A DNA stretch of 46,471 nucleotides. It comes from a virus. Its lineage: Duplodnaviria > Heunggongvirae > Uroviricota > Caudoviricetes. Shown here in pieces: positions 1-32,020 of the stretch; positions within the stretch are counted from its first letter, which is position 1, and each line of letters starts with the position of its first letter. A program made the translations under genes and the position numbers. The notes beneath the pieces are model-generated. The model saw nothing but the letters and a program-made list of their open reading frames with translations. It did not search any database and was not told the origin of the DNA. Location of the stretch: IMG/VR virus record IMGVR_UViG_2606217103_000006, one strand, 5' to 3'.

Positions 1-171
1 TCAATAAATCCCATCATTGCGATCAACCTCATCCTTAACCATTGATGCGAGCAGTTCTTCCAGTTTCTGCGCTGACAGCTTTACCTGGTGATCTTCAGCA
101 TCTTCCCGGGCTATTGTGGTTCGCGCAGTGGCTGATTTTGCTGACATCACCACAGGGGGCAGACGGACCAT
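1..171 (-). CDS. hypothetical small protein; complete ORF whose stop lies at window positions 1-3, start uncertain (internal ATG at 171 preceded by GGAGG)
   Basis: ORF track 1..282 minus strand; no recognisable motif; located beyond the tfa remnant. Confidence 0.25.
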   Translation of the reverse strand: MVRLPPVVMSAKSATARTTIAREDAEDHQVKLSAQKLEELLASMVKDEVDRNDGIY

Positions 172-235
172 TGAACCATGGCCTCCGGAACAAATAAGGG
201 CAAAAATAACAACCACTATCGAAAGCTCACAAACT

Positions 236-451
236 AACCGCAGCACGTTCCTGCATACGACGTGTCTGCGGCATAATCCCAATGATTACTCCCTGACAGG
301 ATTTGCAGGCCACTCAATATCAGGTACAGTTGATGTATCAACACGATTCAACAATACCCGATATTTATTCCATGCCTCCAGCAACGATCTTTCTTCCTCC
401 GTTGCGATTTCCAGATCTACAGCATCCTGCAGTGGCGCAATATACTCACTG
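236..451. repeat. direct repeat copy 1 (about 215 bp): tfa 3' end plus downstream stem-loop
   Basis: Near-identical to 1286-1500 by eye (roughly 85-90 percent); contains inverted repeat ccgcagcacg...cgtgtctgcgg. Confidence 0.7.
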
Positions 452-555
452 AATTCCTGGATGTAGAACTGTGTGGTGACGGTCTTCCAGCCATTCGGCT
501 CCTGCTGTATCGAAGCATACCAGGCTATTTCAATATCGCTATGCTGCGGCAGCAT
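286..555 (-). pseudogene. tail fibre assembly protein C-terminal remnant (duplicated tfa 3' end fused to unrelated N-terminus)
   Basis: C-terminal ~50 aa ([46 protein letters not shown]) nearly identical to C-terminus of the intact Tfa at 1335-1919. Confidence 0.5.
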
Positions 556-611
556 TTAACCCCTTGTAATTCATCGCCATAATTGATTTAATTCACAAAT
601 AAAACTATAAC

Positions 612-1280
612 ATGGTGAAATCAATGAAAAAAAACACAGATGATGGGGCTAAAATTTACACACCACTTACCCTAAAGCTTTATGACTGGTGGGTTTTGGG
701 AGTATCAAATCGGCTTGCATGGGGATGTCCTACAAAGGAACACCTTCTTCCACACTTTCTGGAACATGTAGGTAACAACCATCTGGATATTGGTGTTGGA
801 ACTGGGTTTTACCTTACTCACGTACCTGAGAGTAGTCTGATATCTTTAATGGATTTGAACGAAGCTAGCCTGAACGCGGCATCTACAAGGGCTGGGGAAT
901 CAAAAATTAAACATAAAATTAGCCATGATGTTTTTGAACCTTATCCCGCGGCGTTACATGGTCAATTTGATTCCATTTCCATGTTTTACCTTCTTCACTG
1001 CCTGCCTGGAAATATATCTACAAAAAGCTGTGTAATACGCAATGCGGCGCAGGCCTTAACTGACGATGGAACTCTATACGGAGCCACAATTCTTGGCGAT
1101 GGAGTTGTGCACAATAGCTTCGGTCAAAAACTGATGCGCATTTACAATCAGAAAGGCATCTTTTCAAACACAAAAGATTCCGAAGAAGGCTTAACACATA
1201 TACTCTCAGAGCATTTCGAGAATGTTAAAACCAAGGTTCAAGGTACTGTAGTAATGTTTTCCGCTTCAGGGAAAAAATAG
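612..1280 (+). CDS. class I SAM-dependent methyltransferase-like cargo protein (substrate unknown)
   Basis: Glycine-rich SAM-binding motif I (HLDIGVGTGFY); AT-rich relative to flanks; opposite strand to tail genes; flanked by direct repeats. Confidence 0.6.
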   Translation: MVKSMKKNTDDGAKIYTPLTLKLYDWWVLGVSNRLAWGCPTKEHLLPHFLEHVGNNHLDIGVGTGFYLTHVPESSLISLMDLNEASLNAASTRAGESKIKHKISHDVFEPYPAALHGQFDSISMFYLLHCLPGNISTKSCVIRNAAQALTDDGTLYGATILGDGVVHNSFGQKLMRIYNQKGIFSNTKDSEEGLTHILSEHFENVKTKVQGTVVMFSASGKK

Positions 1281-1285
1281 CATCC

Positions 1286-1500
1286 AACCGCAGCACGTTC
1301 TTGCTTAAGACGTGCTGCGGCATAATCCCAATGATTACTCCCTGACAGGATTTGCAGGCCACTCAATATCAGGTGCAGTTGATGTATCAACACGGTTCAG
1401 CAACACCCGATACTTTTTCCAGGCTTCCAGCAATGAGGTTTCTTCCTCCGTTGCAATTTCCAGATCTGCAGCATCCTGAAGCGGCGCAATATGCTCACTG
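1286..1500. repeat. direct repeat copy 2 (3' end of intact tfa and downstream 11-bp-stem hairpin ccgcagcacgt/acgtgctgcgg)
   Basis: Matches 236-451. Confidence 0.7.
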
Positions 1501-1919
1501 GCTACCTGCATCAGGTTGTTTTTTGTTTCTTCCGCTTCCCGTATCCGAAACAGTTTTTCTGCTTCTTCATCTTTCACCCAGGATGTGCCGTTCCACTTCT
1601 GAAACTCCCCTTCCGGGGATAACCAGGTGACATTTTCCGGTAATGAGCCGAGTTCAGAAATAAATAACGCGTCGCCGGAAGCCACGTCATAAACCGTTTT
1701 ACCCCGATGATCTTCAACGAGATGCCACGATGACTCATCACTGTTGAAAACAGCCACGAAACCAGCCGGAATATCTGGCGGTGCAATATAGGTACTGTTT
1801 GCAGGCAGACCTGTATGAGGTGGAATATATGCGTCACCGTCACCAATAAATTCATTAGTTCCGGCCAGCAGATTATAAATTTTTATGGTCCGTGGTTGTT
1901 CACTCATTCTGAATGCCAT
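1335..1919 (-). CDS. tfa: tail fibre assembly protein
   Basis: 194 aa; immediately downstream of and overlapping stf (ATGA junction at 1919); lambda Tfa-like C-terminus. Confidence 0.85.
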
Positions 1920-4690
1920 TATGCAAGCCTCACAATGTAGTTAAATGCGATGTTTTTGACGGTGTTTTCCGCGTTACCAGCAGCGTTAACGGTGATGGTG
2001 TGTCCATGTGAGCCAATCGCAACCGAGTGCGTATGAGCACCAATACCGACAGTATGTGCATGTGCGCCTGCGCTTGCAGCAGTACCCGATACAGAGTGCG
2101 TATGAGCGCCTGCAGAAGAAGTGTTAACACTGTATTTAGAATAATCAGGTGATCCACTTCCCGGAGCACCACTGGAACCACCTGAAACAAATGTCATCGA
2201 ATGGGTATGTGCACCGGCTGAAGCAGCCGTACCGCTAACACTATGGGTATGCGCACCAGTGTTATTCGTGGATTTAGTGCCGTAATCAAACGACGATGTG
2301 GTTTTCGTCCCCAAATCCGTACTGGATACGCTGGCGCTGTGGGTGTGTGATTTAATGCCGTCCTGTTCCTGAGACAATACGGCCCGACCACTGGCGGGCT
2401 TGCCCTTAATCGTCCAGCCACGCATATCAGGGATCACGCCTGACGGATAAGCGGCTGCAAGTTTCGGGTATGCAGATTTGTCAAAAGTCTGCCCCTGCAT
2501 CAGGGCATAACCAGACGGAACGGTATCTGATGGCCACGGGATTGGTGCGCCGACTGGGTAGCTTTCTGGTGGAAGATTTTTCGAAGTATAAACTTCTGCC
2601 CAGTCTTCCTCAAAACCATAACCGTCTCTTGAAGAACGGTAGAACAGACCACCATTTCTGTAATGCGCCTTCATCTGCAAGGTCCGGCAACTTCCGACTC
2701 CGGTATAGAAGTTAACCAGAATATAGCTGTCGCCAGAGCGGGTGACATTGTAAGCGCCTGATTCGGCATTCCAGGGAACGGCTCCATCCGAATCCGCATA
2801 AGCCCCCGTCGAACGTCGGGCAAATGCACCAATATTTTCCGGCGTGAGGTTAATATCCGCCGAGCCATCAAACTTAACACCGTTAATTTTTGGGTCTGCC
2901 GCAAGTTTCGTCGCGGTATCGGCGTTCCCCTTCAGTGCCCCGGTGATCCCATCAGTAACAGACAACGGACCTGAAATAGTCCCTCCAGTTGTTGGCAGCG
3001 CTCCAATATCTGATGGTGTAGGTTTCTGATGTGAGCTATACATCGTATAAACAACACCATCGGTAACGCTGGAAGGCTTACTCGCTGAATATGTTAGCGA
3101 GGTATAAATAGAAACTGACGCATTTGTAGTACAATCCCAATGGATATTTACACTCGTCGCATAATTGCCAATCTCAACGTAAATATCATATATATCGCCG
3201 GATGTGTTGATCCAGGCGAAATTCGTTAATCCGACGGCTGTACGCTTCCACAAAGCTCCGGTAATCCCTTTGGGGTTTCCATTGCCTGCTCGTAGAACCA
3301 GTTCAGATATACCTGCCTGTTGAGGTGCCCCCACGTTAAATCCAGCGCCACCAATCAATGCGATGTAAACGATGGAACTCGCTTGTGGCATGGTAACCGT
3401 TGCCAGTTTGAACCACCCTGCCCCGCCAGAGAAAGAGATCGTTACTGAATTTAAAGTGCCAATATCTTTCGGTGTTAATGTTATATCCGCAGTCAGTGCT
3501 TTCCCGTTAACTTTTCGGTTAGATGGTACCCTGCCATTCGCATTGTCATTCGCTGCTTTAACTGCCTTCGGTGTCGCGGCAAGCGTTTCAGATGTGCTGT
3601 TGGTTGCACTGCTGAGCTGTACTATCCCCTTTTTCGTCGTGCTCGCATCCTCAAGCGCCACGGCGGATGCAATATCCTCTGCCCGTTTTGCCGCTGTCTC
3701 GGCGCGCGTTGCCGCGGATTCCGCCGTACTTTTGCTCTGAGCTGCCGCCGTCGCACTGCCAGCTGCCTCTGTCGCCTTCGTGGATGCCGTCGTGGCGCTG
3801 CCCTTTGCTGCTGACGCCTGTCTGGTCGCCTCATCTTTTGAAGCAGACGCAGATGATGCCGATGACGCCGCCGAACTGGCGGACGATGCGGCAGCCGTTT
3901 TTGAGGATTCTGCGCTGGTTTCCGAGGCTTTCGCGTTCGTTTCGGATGTCTTCGCTGCCTCTTTTGAGGCCGCCGCATCCCGTGCTGAAGTGGCTGCTTC
4001 TGACGCTTTCGTGGTCGCGGTGGATGCAGAAGTGGCTGCTGATTGTTGTGACGCAGCCGCATTCGTTTCTGACGTTTTCGCCGCACCGGCACTGGTAGCC
4101 ACCGCGCTTTTTGAGGACTCTGCAGCGGCAGCACTTTTTGATGCTTCAGTAGCCTTTGTTGATGCCGTTCCTGCGCTGGAAGACGCTGACTGAGCCGACG
4201 TCGCGGCCTGCCCGGCTGATGTGCTGGCTGCACGTGCTGAGCCTGCAGCATCAGTCGCATGGGTTGCCGCCTCACTGGCAGATATGCTGGCATCGCTGGC
4301 TGACTTCTTCGCGGCTGCCGTGTTCTGTGCAACCGCGGAGGCGTTACGTGACACCTCTTCCACCATCTGCTCAAAGCGGCGCAGTGCCTCCGGTCGGACA
4401 TCATCCTCCGTCATGGCACCGAGAAAATCATTCAGCGTACCTGGTCTGGAACCTTCATAGACGGTAATGGTCCCGGCATGTGAAGGCGGAAAACCTTCAA
4501 CCAGCAGGGTGACGCTGTACTGGCCATGCTCAACATCCATGCTGTAACGTCCGGCTTCATCCGGATTTTCAGAGGCCACCGTGTTCACCACCACCGTGCT
4601 GCTGGTTCGTCTGGCCTTCAGCACAATGGTGCAGTTCTGTACTGGTTTTCCTGTGCCATCTTTAAGCACGCCAGAAATTTTTACTGTCAT
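1919..4690 (-). CDS. stf: side tail fibre protein
   Basis: 923 aa; long Ala/Ser/Thr-rich low-complexity shaft and C-terminal [20 protein letters not shown] repeats typical of E. coli prophage side tail fibres. Confidence 0.9.
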
Positions 4691-4841: not shown

Positions 4842-5441
4842 TCAGAAACGGTATCCGATACCAACAATAAATGCATCCGTTCGCCAGTCGCCACTACCGG
4901 AACCTTCATAAGCAAGGTCAATGGTCACGGATTCGGTCGGGTTAAACTGCACGCCAGCCCCCCACGCCAGAGACGTGTTGCTGTGGCGACCGTCATCACT
5001 TCCGGTCAGCACATCGTGCGTTTTCCCCTTGTTGTCAGTTACGCGGAGATAATCCCCGGAGAAAGTCGACACACGGCTGTAAGCCACACCCGCCATCGAA
5101 TACGCGCTGAACCATTCATTCACGCGTACAGACGGCCCCGCCATCACGCTGAACCAGCGGTTACGCACGGAATCTTCATGCCAGCGGGTATCGCTGTAGC
5201 GCGTTTTTTGCTCATCCTCAGCATTGGCATAACTGAAGGACGTAATCAGCCCCAGCGCGTCCGTAAACTCATAACGGTATTTCACGTTAATCCCGTTCAG
5301 ATCATCACTACCGGGAACGTTCGTCGAGGCATGGAGATACCCCGCGCTCAGCGTGGACTGATGTTCTGCTGCACTCGCTGGCGTAGCAGCGGCGACCTGC
5401 CAGACTACTGCGGACAAAATAACAGCACATAATTTACGCAT
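4842..5441 (-). CDS. lom: outer membrane protein Lom (Ail/Lom family beta-barrel)
   Basis: 199 aa; signal peptide; C-terminal GYRF; position between J and stf as in lambda. Confidence 0.9.
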   Translation of the reverse strand: MRKLCAVILSAVVWQVAAATPASAAEHQSTLSAGYLHASTNVPGSDDLNGINVKYRYEFTDALGLITSFSYANAEDEQKTRYSDTRWHEDSVRNRWFSVMAGPSVRVNEWFSAYSMAGVAYSRVSTFSGDYLRVTDNKGKTHDVLTGSDDGRHSNTSLAWGAGVQFNPTESVTIDLAYEGSGSGDWRTDAFIVGIGYRF

Positions 5442-5509: not shown

Positions 5510-8500
5510 TCAGCTAATCGTGATACCTGCTGTGGATTTCTTCATCACCACAACCAGCAAATCACTGATACTGGCTGTGGGATACCAGTCATTTACCAGC
5601 CACGCTGATACCGAAAACTCCAGCGTCATGTGACCGCGACCAGCAGGCATATCAATAACACCTGTATAAACCAGCGTATTATCCAGCGCGGTACGGTTAT
5701 AAATTTCAGCACCGTTTTTCTTCACTATCAGGCGGCATGACGAATAAATATCGTTATTCTCCCGCTCATGTTTAGCGCCACGAAACGCCACCGCGGGAAT
5801 AACAATCTGCCGGTCAAACGGCTGATCGTCATAAACCCTGACGGTAATGGTCCCTGATGGCCACCGCTCCGGTGCACGGGAGTCCCGGGGGAAAGCTTTG
5901 CCCACTGTTTTAACGAGATCGCCTTCAATCTGGTTCGCAGACAGTTTTCCCAGAACCCGACAGTTTTCATTTATCGTGACATTGTTGAGCGTCCCGGCGT
6001 TCGCATTCACACTGCCACTGATATCCGCATTTTTCGCCGTCAGTCGCCCGTCCGGTGTCAGGGAAAATGCCGGTGGATTTCCACCGCTGGTAATGGTGGG
6101 GGCCGTCAGGCGTTTCAGGAACACGTCGTTCATGAATATCTGATCGCCCTGACCAACAAACATCGGTTTTGTGTTGCCATTCGCAGGATTAACCATCGCA
6201 ATCCTGTCCGCCGCCAGCAGCACCTGACTCTGCATGCCGTCAGGGGTGTTCTCAATACCGGCACCAATACCCGCGATATAAAGGCGTCCGTCCTGCATCT
6301 GCTGCAGCTTCACAGCCCACATGCTGTTCAGGTTATTATTTGTATCAACCTGAACCTTCTGTATCTGCTGAATTGCCGCACTCTGGTCTTCCAGTTTCTT
6401 ATTGACGGTCTGCGTGATTTCATTGCTGACATCCGTAATGGACGTCCTGATTTCAGCCAGGTCAGGCGCAAGCTGACCGTTATCAATCTGCGTCCACAGC
6501 TCCTGAGCCAGATGGGTTTTCCCTATCTCGCCTTTGAAAAAATCCAGATAGCCGGATGCATCATCGCTCGCCCGACCGACGGCCTCCACAAATGCCGATT
6601 TGCCTACGGTGTTCACACTGCGGGTATAAAAGTAATAATCATGGCCCGGTTTGATATTGATACTGGCGGCTATCCAGTACAGCGCCGTACCAAGATAGCG
6701 GGCTGTGGTTTCAACCTGCCTGATATCCGCAATCCGCTTTTCCGAGAACCAGAACTCAAACTGTACCGTCGGATCATAAACCGCAAGATGCGGCGTGGCG
6801 GTTATCTGAAAATAGCCCGGCGTCAGCTCAATCCGCGACGGCGCTGCCGGTGCGGCGATCCGGAACAATACCGATGCCGGATCGCCCTGCTGTCCCCATG
6901 CATTTACCGCCCGGACTGTCAGCGTGTACCGCCCCAGCGCCAGCTGCGTGAAGCGATATGTGGTTTCCGTCGTCCGGGCCGTGCTGACCAACCGCTCACT
7001 GCCGTCGTCCGCTGCCACGGTCAGGCGCAGACTGAAGCGCACGCCCTTCACCACCCGCGGCGTGTCCCATTTAGCCTGCGCCAGATACTGGCCGTCAGCT
7101 GCGCTCACCTCCACCGTCAGGTGCTGTACTGCCGGTGGGATGACGCTGTTCAGGGAGCCTGACTGCGGCTCAAAGCGGGCACCGTTATCCACGATGGCTT
7201 CTTTTTCCGGTACGTGCTGCACCGCCGTGATGGCAAAGGTGCCGTCCGTGTTTTCCCGGATGGAGACACAGCGGAACAGGCGACGGCGCAGTGACGGCAG
7301 GGAGAGTCCCCACACCCCGTATGTCTCCACACCATCAGGCAGGGTACTGACCTGTATCCGGTCCGGCGCGGGGTGTTCGGTGATGTCCACACTCACCGGC
7401 TTACCGCTGCCGTTAATCAGGTTCACCGTGGCGGCACCGGTCTCCGGCAGGGTAACCTCACGGTCCAGCGTCAGGGTGCGGGTGGCAGCATCAATGGACA
7501 GGACACGTCCGCCGGTCAGGGTCCCGGCATAGTCATTATCACAGATTTCAATAATGTCACCGGGTGTGTGCCGCAGCCCCTGAGACCCGAGCGTGAAATC
7601 CACCGTCTGCGTTTCCAGCAGTTCGGTCTTTATCACCCACAGTCCGGCACGGTGGGCCTGACCGCGGCTGGTACAGCCGAACGCGTCCATCTTCAGCAGA
7701 TTGCGCCCGTAGCGCAGTATGGCTTCCGGGTCTTCCACCAGTTCCGTGGAGGTCTGCCAGCCGTTCTGCGGGTCGGTGTAATTCACCTCCACCGCCGTGT
7801 GCCGGTCCTTCAGGGCACTGAAGCTGTAGCGGAACCCCACGCCGTTATCATCCACCACCACATCGCTGTTGGTGTACGGCCACACCACATCCGACAGGCG
7901 GTCCTGAACAAACGTCAGCATCTGGCCGTTCCATACCGGCATACAGCGCATCGCCGAGCAGAAATCACTGAGAACATCCCACGCCTTACGCTGTTGTGCC
8001 AGGTACGCATTGAAGGTCATCCGCGGCTCGGTGCCCCCGAAGCCATCCGGCACCATCTGGTCGCAGTACTGCCCGATGGCATACAGCGCCCACTTGTCCA
8101 CATCCGCCGCCCCCAGACGTTTTCCCATGCCGTAGCGCGGGTGAGTCAGCATGTCCCACAGACACCAGGCCGGATTGTTGCTGTATGCCGGTTTCAGACT
8201 GCCGTCCCAGATACCACTGTACGTGCGTTTTTCCGGGTCATAGTTTGACGGCACCTGGATGATGCGACCGCGGATATGGTAGTTCACCGTCATCTGCTGA
8301 CCACCAAACTGCTCCGCATCCACCTGCATCCCCACAATGGCCGTGTTCGGGTAGCACTGTTTCACATCGATGATTTCGGTGTATGACGACCACAGCGTTC
8401 TGTTCTGCAGCTGGTCCGTGGTGCTGTCCGCCGTCTCCCTGACCATCCGGATGTTAAAGGGGCGGGGAGGCAGATTATCCAGAATCACCGAGGCCAGGAA

Positions 8501-8986
8501 CTGTGAGGTGGTCTTGCCGTTAATGGTGACATCCTTTTCTGTCACCCAGTTACCGTTACGCTGTAACTGAATCAGCAGACGGACAGAGGACGGATTACGG
8601 TCACCCTTTGACGTGGTCTCCACCAGTGACTGCACCCCGAAGGTCACCCGCAGGCGGTCAATGTTCGCTGACGTAATGGTGCGTGTTACCGGTTTTGCCC
8701 TGGTCACTTCGACACCCAGTACAGTTTCAGAGCCGGAGGACTCAAAGCCTTCCGGTGGTATCTGCTCCTGCTCCCCGGCACGCCAGACCGCGGTCACACC
8801 GTGTATCACGGGATTACCGTCCGTGTCCGTCAGCGGGGTTTTGTTCACCAGAATACTCTGCAGGCCTTTCACCGGGCCTTCTATCGGTCCCTCACCAATC
8901 GCATCAATCACGCTCATCATCTGCGTGGATTTGAGATTGTCTTTCGCCTCACGCGGTGTGTGCGCCTTGCCGCCACCTTTGCCCAT
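5510..8986 (-). CDS. J: tail tip / host specificity protein J
   Basis: 1158 aa; size and position match lambda J (1132 aa); fibronectin-III-like central region. Confidence 0.95.
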
Positions 8987-25105: not shown

Positions 25106-26173
25106 ATGAGTCAACATCAATATTATCCACAGCTGAAATGGAAGCCTGCTGAATATGAATCTCTGATGCTTTTAGATCAAACTACGCTCTCTGGTTTTAC
25201 TCCGATCATTACCATTCCAGACATAGACTGGGATTATGAAAACGAATGCTACAAGAAGAGTTTGAGTTCTTACTTATCTGACTTCGGTATTAACCTTGCG
25301 GCATCCTGGAAAGCCAATCGTCCTGTTTTGCTGGATGTTAAATATTTAGATAAACATGGTTCGAGCCGCCATCATCCTCTAGATATGTGTATCCAAGATG
25401 CTAGAGTAAATGGTAAGGAAATTATCCCTGTTGTTTCTCCCGCATATTCAACAAACTATATACATGCTGTTCAACGCAACTTAATCAATGGGCTCGCTAT
25501 ATCTATCACCCCCCAGACATGGCACCAATTCACAAGTCTGGTTAACCACTTAAATATTCATCCTAGTTTAATTGATGTAATCATTGATTTTGGAGATATT
25601 CAAAACGCAACTGATAGTTTAAAACAACAAGCATTAAGCATGGTCAACACATTATCAGGCCAAGCTCCGTGGAGAAACTTGATTTTATCTTCAACCGCAT
25701 ACCCGGCATCACAGGCAGGGATACCGCAACATCAAGTTCATCATATTCCGCGCCATGAATACGATCTTTGGATGTACGTAGTACAGAATTTTAGCAATGG
25801 AAGAACGCCAAGTTTTAGTGATTATCCCACCGCTAGCTCTACCATTACGAGCGTAGACCCACGCTTCATGTCTCAGTATGTCTCAGTGAGATATTCGAAC
25901 GATACCTCATGGATCTTTGTAAAAGGTACCGCAGTTAAAGGAAATGGATGGGGCCAAACTAAAAACTTATGTACTACCCTTGTTAGTTCGCCAGAGTATC
26001 AAGTCTTTGGCTCCAAATTTAGTTGGGGGGATGATTACATTTACCAAAGATCATTAGGCGCTAACAAATCTGGCGGCTCTAAAGAATGGCGTAAAGTTGC
26101 ACATACGCACCATATTACGTTAGTCGTGAGACAGCTTTATTGGTTGGCGCAGACTCAGCCTGCCAAGCCTTAA
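25106..26173 (+). CDS. uncharacterised 355-aa protein, cargo cassette gene 1
   Basis: Strong SD AAGGAG 7 nt upstream; AT-rich; no catalytic motif recognised. Confidence 0.7.
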   Translation: MSQHQYYPQLKWKPAEYESLMLLDQTTLSGFTPIITIPDIDWDYENECYKKSLSSYLSDFGINLAASWKANRPVLLDVKYLDKHGSSRHHPLDMCIQDARVNGKEIIPVVSPAYSTNYIHAVQRNLINGLAISITPQTWHQFTSLVNHLNIHPSLIDVIIDFGDIQNATDSLKQQALSMVNTLSGQAPWRNLILSSTAYPASQAGIPQHQVHHIPRHEYDLWMYVVQNFSNGRTPSFSDYPTASSTITSVDPRFMSQYVSVRYSNDTSWIFVKGTAVKGNGWGQTKNLCTTLVSSPEYQVFGSKFSWGDDYIYQRSLGANKSGGSKEWRKVAHTHHITLVVRQLYWLAQTQPAKP

Positions 26174-28880: not shown

Positions 28881-30749
28881 TTATGATGATGCTGGTGCAT
28901 TTATCTCCAGCACCAGACTTTCTATCTCAACGCCATACGCTGCATTTTTTGTAACATCCGTCAGCGTCAGCGCATTCAGCCCCAGTGTCAGACTGTCTTT
29001 TATGACCTGGAATGCCGGGCCAGCCACTCCATTCAGTTTCGGAGTAACCGTGGCACTGCCGGCGGTGAACACCAGCTCCAGCGTCTGCCAGTCGTTACCG
29101 TAATCGCCGAACTCCCCCAGCTTCGTGTTTCCGGCTTTCCTGTGATGCATCAGATTCACTCTGCCGTCAATGGTCTGAGTGAAGTAAGACATCAGGAACG
29201 GATTACCAGTACCCGTCATCGCCACATCATCAGGAACGGGAGCGTCCGTATACAGATAAATCCCCAGCCCGAACTGATTGTTGGTCAGTGCGCCTGAGAG
29301 GCGGAACTTACAGGTCAGTCTGCCGCCCTGTGTCAGCAGGGTAATTGCGTCATCCACCGGATGCATCAGGTACCAGGTTTTATTGCTCTGCTTGGTGATC
29401 TTAAATACACCCTCTGACAACTGAATTCCGCCATTCTTAATGCTCCAGCCCTGCGCAGCAGCATCTCCGGCTGTCGGCAACAGGGAGATTGTGCGTACGG
29501 ATGCATCTTCAGACGGCCCCGATGGCGTGTCGCCGCCGGGCGAGGGTTTGATTTCCGGTGCCTTACCACTAATGAAGGCTAAGGTGCGACCGGCTACGTT
29601 CAGAATAGCAGTTGCCATACGATCGGGAATAATGCCACGACGCGCCCATGAGCTGAAATGCGTCGGGCGATTTGATGATACCCAGTTTTTGTTCGTTCGG
29701 GATGCCGAACCGTAATAACCAGACCCGACAATATCAGGATCTTCTGACGGGTTGTTTGTCGGTGTATTAACTCCGCTACCATCGGTCATAAAGGGAACAA
29801 AATAAATCTGCTGGGATTCTTTACCTTTATATGCACCATATACCACTTCATATTGCGTACCGTGTTCTTGTTTCCACGCGTATGTCGTGTCGCCACAAAT
29901 CCAGGGGACTGATGCCGGACTTCCACCGTGACACTGCGCCGCCAGCCCGGCAAGGTCAGCACGGAACTGCTGTACCATTGCAAGAAATGCTGCTGGCTGC
30001 TGGGCGTAACTGGCATTCGTCATATCGAATTCCCCCTGCATCCAGCATATCGCCAGCAAAACGTTTTTCGGGTTTTTCTGCAATGCTGCCTTCGTGCGGA
30101 AAAGCAGATCCTGATATAACGGCTTACCCACTCCCCAGCGAGCCGAATCCTGACTGGCCCCCGTGGACTCGCTGAATGTCCCCTCCGTGCCCTTGGTGAA
30201 TGCCGAACCACCACGACAGCATGGTACCAGCAGGATCCCCGCATTATTAGGGATATACGGAAGCAGTTTTTTGGCAATATGTAAGCCCTGTCCGACACAA
30301 CCGTACTGCCCTTTGCTCAGGTCAGCCCGGGGATGGTTAATCGTACTCATATCCTGAACATCATGCAGACAATGGTCAGCAGGAATGATGTCGTTAAATA
30401 CGCATACTTCGCCACCGGGAGTCACTGTGTTACGACGGGCCAGTTGCTTAATGCGCGGATGGGGCGCATCGTATGAATCCGGAAGCGGAAGCCCTTCACC
30501 GTAAGCCATGGCATTGGACTGCCCGGCCAGTACGATGACGTAGTACCACTCCGGCTCAGTTGCACCACTGACGACCACATCACCTTCTGCTGCAATCGCC
30601 TGCATCAGGGTATAAGGGGTTATGGCCACCGGACTACCAAACGGCTGCCAGCCCTCTTTCAGTTTATGTGTCAGCTTTTCCGCAAGATCTGACGGCGACG
30701 CCGCCCTGACAACATCATAGTGTTTAAATGCCATGGTTCTTTCCACCAT
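28881..30749 (-). CDS. NanS-p-like sialate O-acetylesterase (DUF1737 N-terminus + GQSN esterase domain)
   Basis: 622 aa; LAGQSNAMAYGEG motif; same position as the esterase gene downstream of stx in Stx phages. Confidence 0.8.
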   Translation of the reverse strand: MVERTMAFKHYDVVRAASPSDLAEKLTHKLKEGWQPFGSPVAITPYTLMQAIAAEGDVVVSGATEPEWYYVIVLAGQSNAMAYGEGLPLPDSYDAPHPRIKQLARRNTVTPGGEVCVFNDIIPADHCLHDVQDMSTINHPRADLSKGQYGCVGQGLHIAKKLLPYIPNNAGILLVPCCRGGSAFTKGTEGTFSESTGASQDSARWGVGKPLYQDLLFRTKAALQKNPKNVLLAICWMQGEFDMTNASYAQQPAAFLAMVQQFRADLAGLAAQCHGGSPASVPWICGDTTYAWKQEHGTQYEVVYGAYKGKESQQIYFVPFMTDGSGVNTPTNNPSEDPDIVGSGYYGSASRTNKNWVSSNRPTHFSSWARRGIIPDRMATAILNVAGRTLAFISGKAPEIKPSPGGDTPSGPSEDASVRTISLLPTAGDAAAQGWSIKNGGIQLSEGVFKITKQSNKTWYLMHPVDDAITLLTQGGRLTCKFRLSGALTNNQFGLGIYLYTDAPVPDDVAMTGTGNPFLMSYFTQTIDGRVNLMHHRKAGNTKLGEFGDYGNDWQTLELVFTAGSATVTPKLNGVAGPAFQVIKDSLTLGLNALTLTDVTKNAAYGVEIESLVLEINAPASS

Positions 30750-30994
30750 CTGAAAAATGATTCTTTAAAATACCTGACATGTAATACAGAAAAAAAACAA
30801 AACCATACCTTAAATAAAAACCTCATCATCAAGCAGATATGCATGGATAAACTACAAGACGAGATATAAACCACCCTGCATTTAAATAAACAATAAACAA
30901 CATCAGAAAAATAATTCTGCTCTATGGTTTACAATCAAAAATATCATTTATACTTTTCAGAACATCACCAGCAAGGCATAAACAAGGAAACTAA

Positions 30995-31330
30995 ATGAAG
31001 TGGATTGTGATTGATACAGTTATCCAGCCATCATGCGGAATATCTTTTTCAGTCATATGGAGTAAAATAAAATTAATAATCTGGTATCAATCGGATGCTT
31101 TCTTACCTCCTGAAAGTATATTTACACTGACTCACACAGGCATCATGCTCAATAACAAAGTGCTACCTGTAACCATTTACAACGTAGTGCCATTCAATAA
31201 AACATTCTGGAATTTAATCAAAAACAGCCAGGAATGCCCTACAAATACAGATAACGTATTGAATGAATGCTTTAATAACCGTTGCACTCTGCAAATATGT
31301 CCTTATGGACTAAAACAACAAAGTCCATAA
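30995..31330 (+). CDS. hypothetical Cys-rich small protein (111 aa), AT-rich cargo
   Basis: RBS AGGAAA 6 nt upstream; 6 Cys; opposite strand to late genes; no recognised family. Confidence 0.4.
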
Positions 31331-31365
31331 GGAGTTTACTCACATCTGACAAAATCAATATAAAC

Positions 31366-31551
31366 AGCCCCTCCGGAGAGGGGCTGGAGAGTGGCGCTAT
31401 GTGCCATTGCATGGTGCCGGGTGCCTCCCGGTGAATTCAGTACCAGCACCTGAATCCGCGATTATCCCATATACCTACTCGCTGATTGCCCCTCCGCACA
31501 GGGGGATTCACCATGCGAAATTTTTTAACAAACTTCCCGCTGGCCAGACAA
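31366..31551 (-). repeat. repeat unit 1: candidate sRNA gene (promoter-like TTGTCT/TTAAAA, ~108-nt structured domain 31409-31516, terminator hairpin 31366-31385)
   Basis: Perfect 8-bp-stem hairpin AGCCCCTC-cgga-GAGGGGCT; domain closed by GCATGGTG/CACCATGC; internal hairpins conserved with unit 2. Confidence 0.55.
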
Positions 31552-31828
31552 TAATCGCCAGCCTGAATTATGAGCAACGTAGCATTTTACGGGAAAACTG
31601 TTTTCTGCAGTAAAAAGGCCCGCCGGAGCGAGCCTGGAAGGATAGCGGTCATGTGATGCCGGTTTCCCGGTAACTCAGCATCGGTATCTGAGTCAACGTT
31701 TTCTCTACTGGGTCATTTCCGATACGTTCCGCCTTCCGGCAGACTTTCATCACGTCAGAAAATATAGCACCCTGAGTAACAGGACAGTACTCAGAATTCA
31801 GGAAACTGTGACACATCCTGCACAGAAA

Positions 31829-32020
31829 AGCCCCTCCGGAGAGGGGCTGAAGTATAGCCTAATTTCTGTCTGTCGCATGGTGCCAGGTGCCTCCCGGTAA
31901 ATTCAGCCTGTCTACTGAATTTGCATGTTCTCTGGATCATACACTTTGCCAGATGCCCCGCCGCTGAGGGGGATTCACCATGCGATGTAATTTTTAACAA
32001 ATTCTCCGGCAGCCAGACAA
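31829..32020 (-). repeat. repeat unit 2: second copy of candidate sRNA gene (domain 31875-31983, terminator hairpin 31829-31848 followed by TTTTCTGT on minus strand)
   Basis: Same stems as unit 1 with different linker/loop sequences. Confidence 0.55.

Follow-up and report, generated by a model that had tools for sequence, protein, structure and literature searches.

The window analysed here, the whole 46,471-nucleotide (nt) stretch of the Caudoviricetes record IMGVR_UViG_2606217103_000006 in IMG/VR, raises the question of why the 3' end of tfa, the tail-fibre assembly gene, is present twice near its left end, and why the two copies bracket an AT-rich gene with a binding motif for S-adenosylmethionine (SAM). 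The original prediction regarded this arrangement as the footprint of cargo that was acquired by recombination at the tail-fibre end. The window is a lambdoid prophage, and near-identical prophages in Escherichia coli 55989 and S88 sit in ompW beside trpA-yciGFE. We think, with a probability of roughly 0.8, that this prophage is integrated in ompW and that the segment is its moron cassette of the ybcY type, in the position of the lambda 'b-region'. The late operon runs in the order stf, tfa, hairpin, methyltransferase gene (antisense), an 89-amino-acid tfa remnant, hairpin and older tail-fibre debris. The features at this end of the window are the following.

1–189, minus strand: 3' remnant of a DUF4376-type tail-fibre/assembly gene, with a 48-codon open reading frame (ORF) at 1–147 (phrog_7703 and phrog_1141, tail fiber protein)
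236–462, no strand: left direct repeat, with a hairpin at 238–271 and the last 58 codons and stop of a tfa-type frame
286–555, minus strand: 89-amino-acid Tfa remnant ORF of the tfaX type (match to Caudo_TAP positions 75–130 only; phrog_2341; partial pseudogene in RefSeq)
556–611, no strand: AT-rich divergent spacer of 56 nt, with sigma-70-like promoter candidates from a consensus scan and direct reading
612–1280, plus strand: gene of a predicted YbcY-family class I SAM-dependent methyltransferase (Pfam; phrog_2132; RefSeq WP_000240999; 222 amino acids from the annotated start at 612)
1286–1511, no strand: right direct repeat, with a hairpin at 1288–1320 and the last 58 codons of the functional tfa
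1335–1919, minus strand: intact tfa, 194 amino acids (full-length Caudo_TAP match, 1.5e-44; phrog_105; 92.6% identical to lambda tfa DNA)
1919–4690, minus strand: stf side tail-fibre gene, 923 amino acids (ORF list; RefSeq annotation of equivalent prophages)

The two repeats

The direct repeats, which had been described as about 215 bp long with the last 50 or so codons of tfa and a downstream hairpin in each, are real and slightly longer. They extend about 11 nt past positions 451 and 1500, contain the last 58 or so codons in addition to a strong hairpin, and are 89.4% identical over the 227 columns of a gapped alignment (227 and 226 nt; BLAST E = 5e-83). A repeat finder reported them as two pairs, 266–462/1315–1511 (197 nt ungapped, 90%) and 236–264/1286–1314 (29 nt, 90%), which form one repeat because a 1-nt insertion or deletion within the hairpin splits 236–264 from 266–462. 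BLAST found no third copy in the window, and in the gapped alignment a weaker similarity between the copies tapers off over a further 40 nt or so beyond 462 and 1511. The right hairpin has a perfect 11-bp stem (z = -5.1/-4.4), and the left one is the same hairpin with one bulged base.

The repeated coding part specifies the helical domain at the C-terminus of Tfa, a conserved stretch that many tfa alleles have in common at the DNA level. Tfa proteins possess a variable N-terminal fibre-binding domain and a conserved C-terminal trimerisation domain (PMC9608196). Between the two copies this part differs at 15 nucleotides but only 4 amino acids, so that most changes are synonymous and the ratio of non-synonymous to synonymous substitution rates (dN/dS) is 0.11. 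This divergence bears on the idea that the repeats are two copies of a small RNA (sRNA) gene rather than coding sequence, since the Rfam family IS009 (RF02111) matches the right copy at 1378–1576 on the minus strand with 218.8 bits, above its gathering score of 117, and the left copy at 329–532 on the minus strand with 112.5 bits, just below it. However, both matches are on the tfa coding strand and in frame with it, the IS009 model has few base pairs, and a ribosome profiling (RIBOseq) study left IS009 out as lying within genes (PMC5331693). With the coding-like divergence of the copies, the family may simply model conserved tfa sequence, and we hold an sRNA origin of the repeats to be very improbable.

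Two smaller observations concern the same place. The right hairpin gives a weak sub-threshold match at 1289–1353 (minus strand) to the Shigella sRNA family CssrB (33.7 bits, gathering score 76, E = 1.4e-4). A 45-amino-acid ORF at 1225–1362 (minus strand) spans the methyltransferase stop, the hairpin and the tfa stop; it is annotated in RefSeq as the 'hypothetical protein' WP_001309429, with a K-12 counterpart, WP_071592174, labelled 'nucleocapsid protein', and is probably a spurious gene call.

Occupied and empty sites

Whether the segment behaves as a unit can be judged from prophages that lack it. A 427-nt probe was composed of the left flank, one repeat and tfa-specific sequence, and was sized so that the two halves of an occupied locus cannot be joined; it gave single-piece matches in 228 records. 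Two of these loci (L021 and L022) are prophages that likewise occupy the ompW site; they possess the DUF4376 remnant, one repeat and an intact tfa but lack the methyltransferase gene. Related prophages without the insert, which the original prediction had proposed as a comparison, are thus available, with a left flank identical to 100%. In both loci the sequence from the flank through the hairpin and 30 nt beyond it is 99.6–100% identical to the left copy of the window, and the coding part is 94–98% identical to the right copy versus 87–88% to the left. The single repeat is therefore, by these identities, evidently chimeric, with a left-type hairpin and a right-type coding part.

Occupied and empty alleles differ by exactly one unit of 1,050 bp, and the junction lies within 54 nt of identical repeat sequence. 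Such a pattern is the mark of homologous recombination, either of one repeat with the other or with a donor in which they are present; the aligned alleles show a unit whose gain or loss evidently took place by this route, within the conserved 3' end of tfa. The cassette lies between sequences that are contiguous in L021 and L022, and its base composition deviates from that of its neighbours, as is expected of a moron. Of the footprint that was originally proposed, recombination within the repeat stands, and the data are compatible with gain as well as with loss. The right-hand side of the locus is mobile as well. S88 is 98.7–100% identical to the window up to position 1511 and 92.6% identical beyond it, which marks 1511, the inner edge of the repeat, as a breakpoint of module exchange. 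The tail-fibre genes to the right have, on these comparisons, been exchanged at least as often as the cargo.

The relationship of the two copies can also be followed across loci. Left copies elsewhere are 99–100% identical to the left copy of the window, right copies are only 81–90% identical to it, and right copies elsewhere are 92–98% identical to the right copy of the window. Among the loci compared, the exception is the degenerate tfaX fragment of K-12, with 87% identity to the left and 84% to the right copy. As left resembles left and right resembles right, the two copies are distinct alleles of a single origin and not recurrent local duplications.

This allelic distinctness, with each copy orthologous across loci, is shared ground with a competing explanation, in which the methyltransferase gene and the left tfa belong to an older tail-fibre region, upstream of which the present stf-tfa module was inserted. 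The repeats would then be two tfa alleles side by side and no footprint of cargo capture. Such a stacking of modules is also favoured by the third tail-fibre remnant, of the DUF4376 type, further left, by otherwise identical cassettes whose stf and tfa N-terminal parts are different, the breakpoint being at 1511, by other cargo that lies between hairpin and tfa in O157 and phage Turner, and by the similarity beyond 462/1511, which tapers and has no sharp stop. Against it, the empty sites join the left-type hairpin and flank straight to a right-type tfa, although recombination between the repeats would equally yield this, and none of 580 homologues is a full-length Tfa with the N-terminal 38 residues of the left copy. 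We regard stacking as a serious possibility that nevertheless stays short of even odds.

The methyltransferase

The gene between the repeats had been described as an AT-rich plus-strand gene with a SAM-binding motif, and both attributes are borne out. Its G+C content is about 0.40–0.45 (0.38–0.45 across 501–1300), versus about 0.46–0.65 in tfa and stf, and the motif is LDIGVGTG. ATG 624, which gives a product of 218 amino acids, is probably the likelier start, since the alignments of the PHROG model and of all homologues begin at residue 5 and since GGTGA at 614–618 precedes this codon.

From Pfam and the neighbours of its modelled fold, the product is assigned to the class I SAM-dependent methyltransferases. 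Methyltransf_12 matches with 37.5 bits (cut-off 30), and Methyltransf_23, Methyltransf_25 and Methyltransf_11 also exceed their cut-offs. None of 34 homologues deviates in motif I (HLDIGVGTG) or in the acidic aspartate of 'MDLN' that ends strand 2, and the protein conforms to the Rossmann-like seven-stranded fold. The AlphaFold (AF2) model that was built from these 34 homologues has a mean confidence (predicted local distance difference test, pLDDT) of 90.6, and its fold neighbours are overwhelmingly methyltransferases of small molecules and lipids. In the six contexts that were compared, the gene is intact and free of stop codons with dN/dS values of 0.12–0.38, and it thus appears to be under purifying selection.

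The substrate had been considered impossible to tell from sequence, with DNA, RNA and small molecules all open; this largely holds, although DNA now appears unlikely. No DNA-methylase domain of Pfam (N6_N4, D12 or C5) matches the protein, and neither a (D/N/S)PP(Y/F/W) nor a PC motif of DNA methylases was found, there being no PP dipeptide in all 222 residues, and none of the neighbours in fold is a DNA methylase. These results also count against an orphan DNA methylase that protects the phage DNA, as does the N6_N4 DNA methylase that the prophage already carries elsewhere (32479–33537). A tRNA or rRNA modifier would be the other form of a nucleic-acid methylase. Among the fold neighbours there are a few enzymes that modify tRNA (CmoA, Trm9, METTL6) or mRNA; the small-molecule and lipid enzymes outnumber them by far, and the chromosomal homologues stand alone, unlinked to restriction genes. 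We consider a nucleic-acid methylase of either kind improbable.

A specific small molecule cannot be borrowed from the known enzymes. NCBIfam gave no equivalog, with PmtA, RquA and CpaM scoring 15.7, 16.9 and 18.0 bits against cut-offs of 390, 175 and 180. In sequence searches of the PDB, with the single sequence and with a profile, just generic JHAMT/UbiG matches were obtained (E 1e-3 to 6e-6), and the identity to the phosphatidylethanolamine (PE) N-methyltransferase PmtA (8ys9), to JHAMT (7ec0) and to UbiG/Coq5 is only 12–21%. As no match is specific for these families, their substrates are not transferable to YbcY. PADLOC returned only a mad2 match with E = 0.009, so that no defence system is assigned. 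The N-terminal helices are conserved and rich in aromatic residues (YDWWVL..SN..AW.C), and these helices and the best-matching enzymes suggest a lipophilic small molecule as the substrate. In the literature, a search found no mention of WP_000240999, and one for a methyltransferase as a moron beside a tail fiber assembly gene gave nothing relevant; within the library searched, papers on ybcY reported no function, and the titles and abstracts of further papers suggested none.

In this context, the homologues outside phages are informative. Those with 56–68% identity are stand-alone chromosomal genes in non-phage surroundings in Salmonella, between a PMT_2 glycosyltransferase gene and cytochrome b561/hrpA, and in Enterobacter, after a liv transporter and a DUF4156 gene, and the family reaches Yersinia, Erwinia, Aeromonas, Shewanella and the Pasteurellaceae. 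The phage gene is thus probably a captured host gene. In the Salmonella and Enterobacter neighbourhoods neither a conserved operon partner nor a linkage to restriction genes was found, and in the absence of such a partner the gene context gives no hint at the function.

Spacer, transcription and termination

The methyltransferase gene could in principle have been a conserved member of a tail-fibre operon, which would have spoken against a moron. This is not the case, because the gene lies on the opposite strand, has a promoter-like spacer of its own and often has no tail-fibre gene nearby, as in DLP12 and in remnants at argU. In the spacer, a first promoter candidate, TTAACC-16-CATAAT at 556–583, would leave a 34-nt leader that contains GGTGA; a second, TTGATT-17-TATAAC, lies at 583–611. 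Genomic SELEX (systematic evolution of ligands by exponential enrichment) located an RpoD holoenzyme site, TTGATT-17-TATAAC, and an H-NS site in the ybcY/tfaX spacer of K-12 (PMC3946193), and the listed promoter corresponds to positions 583–611 of the window. Phage Turner has TTTTT after the hairpin on the methyltransferase strand, so that its hairpin constitutes a canonical terminator. For the window itself, a canonical intrinsic terminator was considered and set aside, as the scan flagged just a part of the left hairpin, on the minus strand.

The left tfa copy and the outer flank

The left copy had been interpreted as a Tfa remnant fused to an unrelated N-terminus, and this description holds. 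Codons 39 to 89, approximately, of the 89-amino-acid ORF encode the conserved C-terminal helical domain and match the last 56 positions of the 131-position Caudo_TAP profile, whereas codons 1 to about 38 (463–555) are not Tfa-like. These N-terminal residues occur in no full-length Tfa among the 580 homologues, and both a search of 5.8 billion proteins and a tblastn search against phages found them in this cassette only. An origin of residues 9–35 in the Tfa of Salmonella phage RE-2010 was also considered and dropped, as the BLASTP alignment is weak and unconvincing.

One could suppose that the ORF is a functional mini-Tfa that consists of the trimerisation domain only, which would make the cassette a two-gene unit. 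The frame is open in the window and in the version of a P2-like prophage, from which it differs at 36 of 267 nt without a stop codon and with 82% amino-acid identity; phrog_2341 spans its full length; a Shine-Dalgarno-like AAGGGG lies 4 nt upstream of its ATG; and the SELEX promoter is listed in the tfaX direction (PMC3946193). At other loci, plaque-forming phages among them, however, the left copy is frameshifted (phage 2G7b), truncated at its 3' end (phage Turner and O157) or interrupted by an internal stop (K-12), and it is absent from KKo003 and from argU remnants that retain the methyltransferase gene. RefSeq treats it as a pseudogene. Compared with the P2-like version, dN/dS is 0.64 in the unique N-terminal part (8 substitutions) and 0.17 in the Tfa-derived part, and the latter value can be the legacy of a formerly working gene. 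A functional Tfa chaperone combines a fibre-binding N-terminal part with the C-terminal domain, and the ORF possesses the C-terminal part only (Caudo_TAP match; PMC9608196). A mini-Tfa is hardly probable on this evidence, and we conclude that the left copy is, to judge by its sequence, a decaying remnant.

Further left, between the cassette and the ompW attachment site, the DUF4376 remnant forms a third layer of tail-fibre debris. In E. coli 55989, S88 and others, RefSeq lists the equivalent stretch as a pseudogene that lacks its N-terminus and is interrupted by an internal stop.

Identity with DLP12 and distribution

The three checks that the original prediction had proposed all speak for it; what it missed is that the arrangement is already known. 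In K-12 the order is nohD, a terminase fragment, a tfa fragment, a frameshifted methyltransferase gene, a tfa fragment, appY, ompT and envY, and the genes of the cryptic prophage DLP12 at this locus are named tfaD, ybcY and tfaX (PMC3946193, PMC6854850, PMC2408971). Compared with K-12 AB1157, the cassette is 98.8% identical at the DNA level over 730 nt and is flanked there by right-type (96.5%) and left-type tfa fragments; gene order, orientation, spacer and the two types of tfa 3' ends are the same. By these likenesses the cassette of the window belongs to the YbcY orthologue group (K-12 b0562, DLP12). In contrast to DLP12, which lies at argU and in which ybcY is frameshifted, tfaD lacks its N-terminus and tfaX contains an internal stop, the window carries an intact methyltransferase gene and an intact right tfa in a complete prophage at ompW. 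It is the intact form of the annotated tfaD–ybcY–tfaX, which is annotated by RefSeq in thousands of genomes.

Methyltransferase DNA (600–1285) is present with at least 95% identity in 3,832 of 5,426 complete E. coli genomes (about 70%), including K-12. Many strains retain only int'–tfa'–ybcY–ompT at argU (PMC6854850), and these remnants explain why the gene is so prevalent. Among isolated temperate phages, 2G7b, ev243, the PhiR series, Turner and Kati possess the cassette as well, and P2-like prophages at smpB/ssrA carry the whole tfa–methyltransferase–tfa' block with 93% identity over 1.8 kb. In phage Ayreon (locus L010, 3001–3360), a tfa 3' fragment and hairpin are followed by the last 41 nt of the methyltransferase gene, then directly by the spacer from upstream of that gene and by the first part of the 89-amino-acid ORF, so that this is evidently a decayed cassette from which the methyltransferase gene was deleted.

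Two loci contain further genes. In O157:H7 86-24 (locus L014, 6179–8392), a second yciG/yciF/yciE-like stress cluster and a manganese catalase gene lie between the ybcY hairpin and tfa, so that a second cargo slot exists between the stop codon of tfa and the hairpin. In phage Turner (locus L012, 4956–6774), a DNA invertase gene and several small ORFs occupy this slot beside tfa.

A working model

The 227-nt tfa 3' end with its hairpin serves as an arm for recombination, a role that it owes to its conservation. The methyltransferase gene, probably captured from an enterobacterial chromosome, would have a transcript of its own, which would start at a sigma-70 promoter within the AT-rich spacer bound by H-NS and stop at the hairpin, and would be expressed in the prophage independently of the late operon. 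The enzyme may use SAM to methylate a small, probably lipophilic, metabolite or a lipid rather than DNA, and the left tfa copy would be functionless and decaying.

Several observations weigh against this model or parts of it. The fold neighbours form a flat list without a specific match and include the tRNA-modifying enzymes named above. The 89-amino-acid ORF may be translated, since it is intact here and in the P2-like version and is preceded by AAGGGG. The -10 hexamer associated with the SELEX site abuts ATG 612 and leaves nearly no leader before ATG 624; as the message would be close to leaderless, it is uncertain which promoter is the real one. No T-run follows the hairpin on the methyltransferase strand of the window, and a terminator scan of the window did not flag the right hairpin. 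Finally, insertion and deletion both fit the empty sites, and the tfa allele there differs by about 7% from that of the window in its N-terminal part, so that the empty-site prophages are not simple deletion derivatives of the window lineage.

Other parts of the prophage

Away from the cassette, the following features were recorded.

4842–5441, upstream of stf: lom (ORF list, RefSeq equivalents)
5510–8986, upstream of stf: J (ORF list, RefSeq equivalents)
28881–30749: NanS-p-like esterase gene
31356–31544 and 31820–32013: two STnc100 sRNA copies
32279–32438: genes of tRNA-Met and tRNA-Arg
32479–33537: N6_N4 DNA methylase gene, separate from the YbcY gene
34110–34931: gene of the Q antiterminator

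The region 28881–34931 has a late-regulatory layout like that of a Shiga toxin (Stx) phage, but without stx, and no ORF of at least 120 amino acids was found between 30749 and 32479. In the early region, a gene of a eukaryotic-type Ser/Thr protein kinase (Pkinase, 1.4e-31) adjoins that of a PP2C-like phosphatase (37376–38870, plus strand), and sok (36961–37135) and DicF (44894–44945) are found near this pair. A gene of a 355-amino-acid 'Beta protein' (PF14350, 8e-56) at 25106–26173 on the plus strand lies near lysis and packaging genes, opposite in strand to the neighbouring ORFs of at least 120 amino acids, and is likely another accessory gene.

Relation to known morons and significance

The moron concept reportedly goes back to Juhala, Hendrix and co-workers and to genes such as lom and bor of lambdoid phages. 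Like these, the cassette is an extra gene of deviant composition with promoter- and terminator-like elements beside the tail-fibre genes, and by analogy it would work like a classical lambdoid moron in the b-region position. Unlike them, it has a 227-bp direct repeat of the neighbour's 3' end on either side, which provides an evident recombination route for gain or loss. Haggård-Ljungquist and co-workers are said to have described in 1992 how tail-fibre and tfa modules are exchanged horizontally among lambda, P2, Mu and P1. The occurrence of the tfa–methyltransferase–tfa' block in lambdoid and P2-like prophages with 93% identity, and with breakpoints at the Tfa domain boundary, resembles this exchange; it differs in that a non-structural passenger gene travels with the module.

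As a discovery, the finding is of small value. It offers a clean worked example of how the coding part of the Tfa C-terminal domain serves as a recombination arm, both for the exchange of host-range modules and for the transport of a passenger gene; a comparison of occupied with empty alleles at one chromosomal site shows this role directly. The remaining interest lies in the substrate of a methyltransferase that is kept by about 70% of E. coli. It is conceivable, though we think it doubtful, that the conserved tfa 3' end is a portable homology arm by means of which ybcY travels along with, or moves between, the tail-fibre modules of unrelated phage families, and that the intact retention of ybcY in most E. 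coli, even in ompT–ybcY remnants, reflects a real benefit. If so, a methylated envelope lipid, quinone or other lipophilic metabolite might alter the physiology of the host or its susceptibility to phages.

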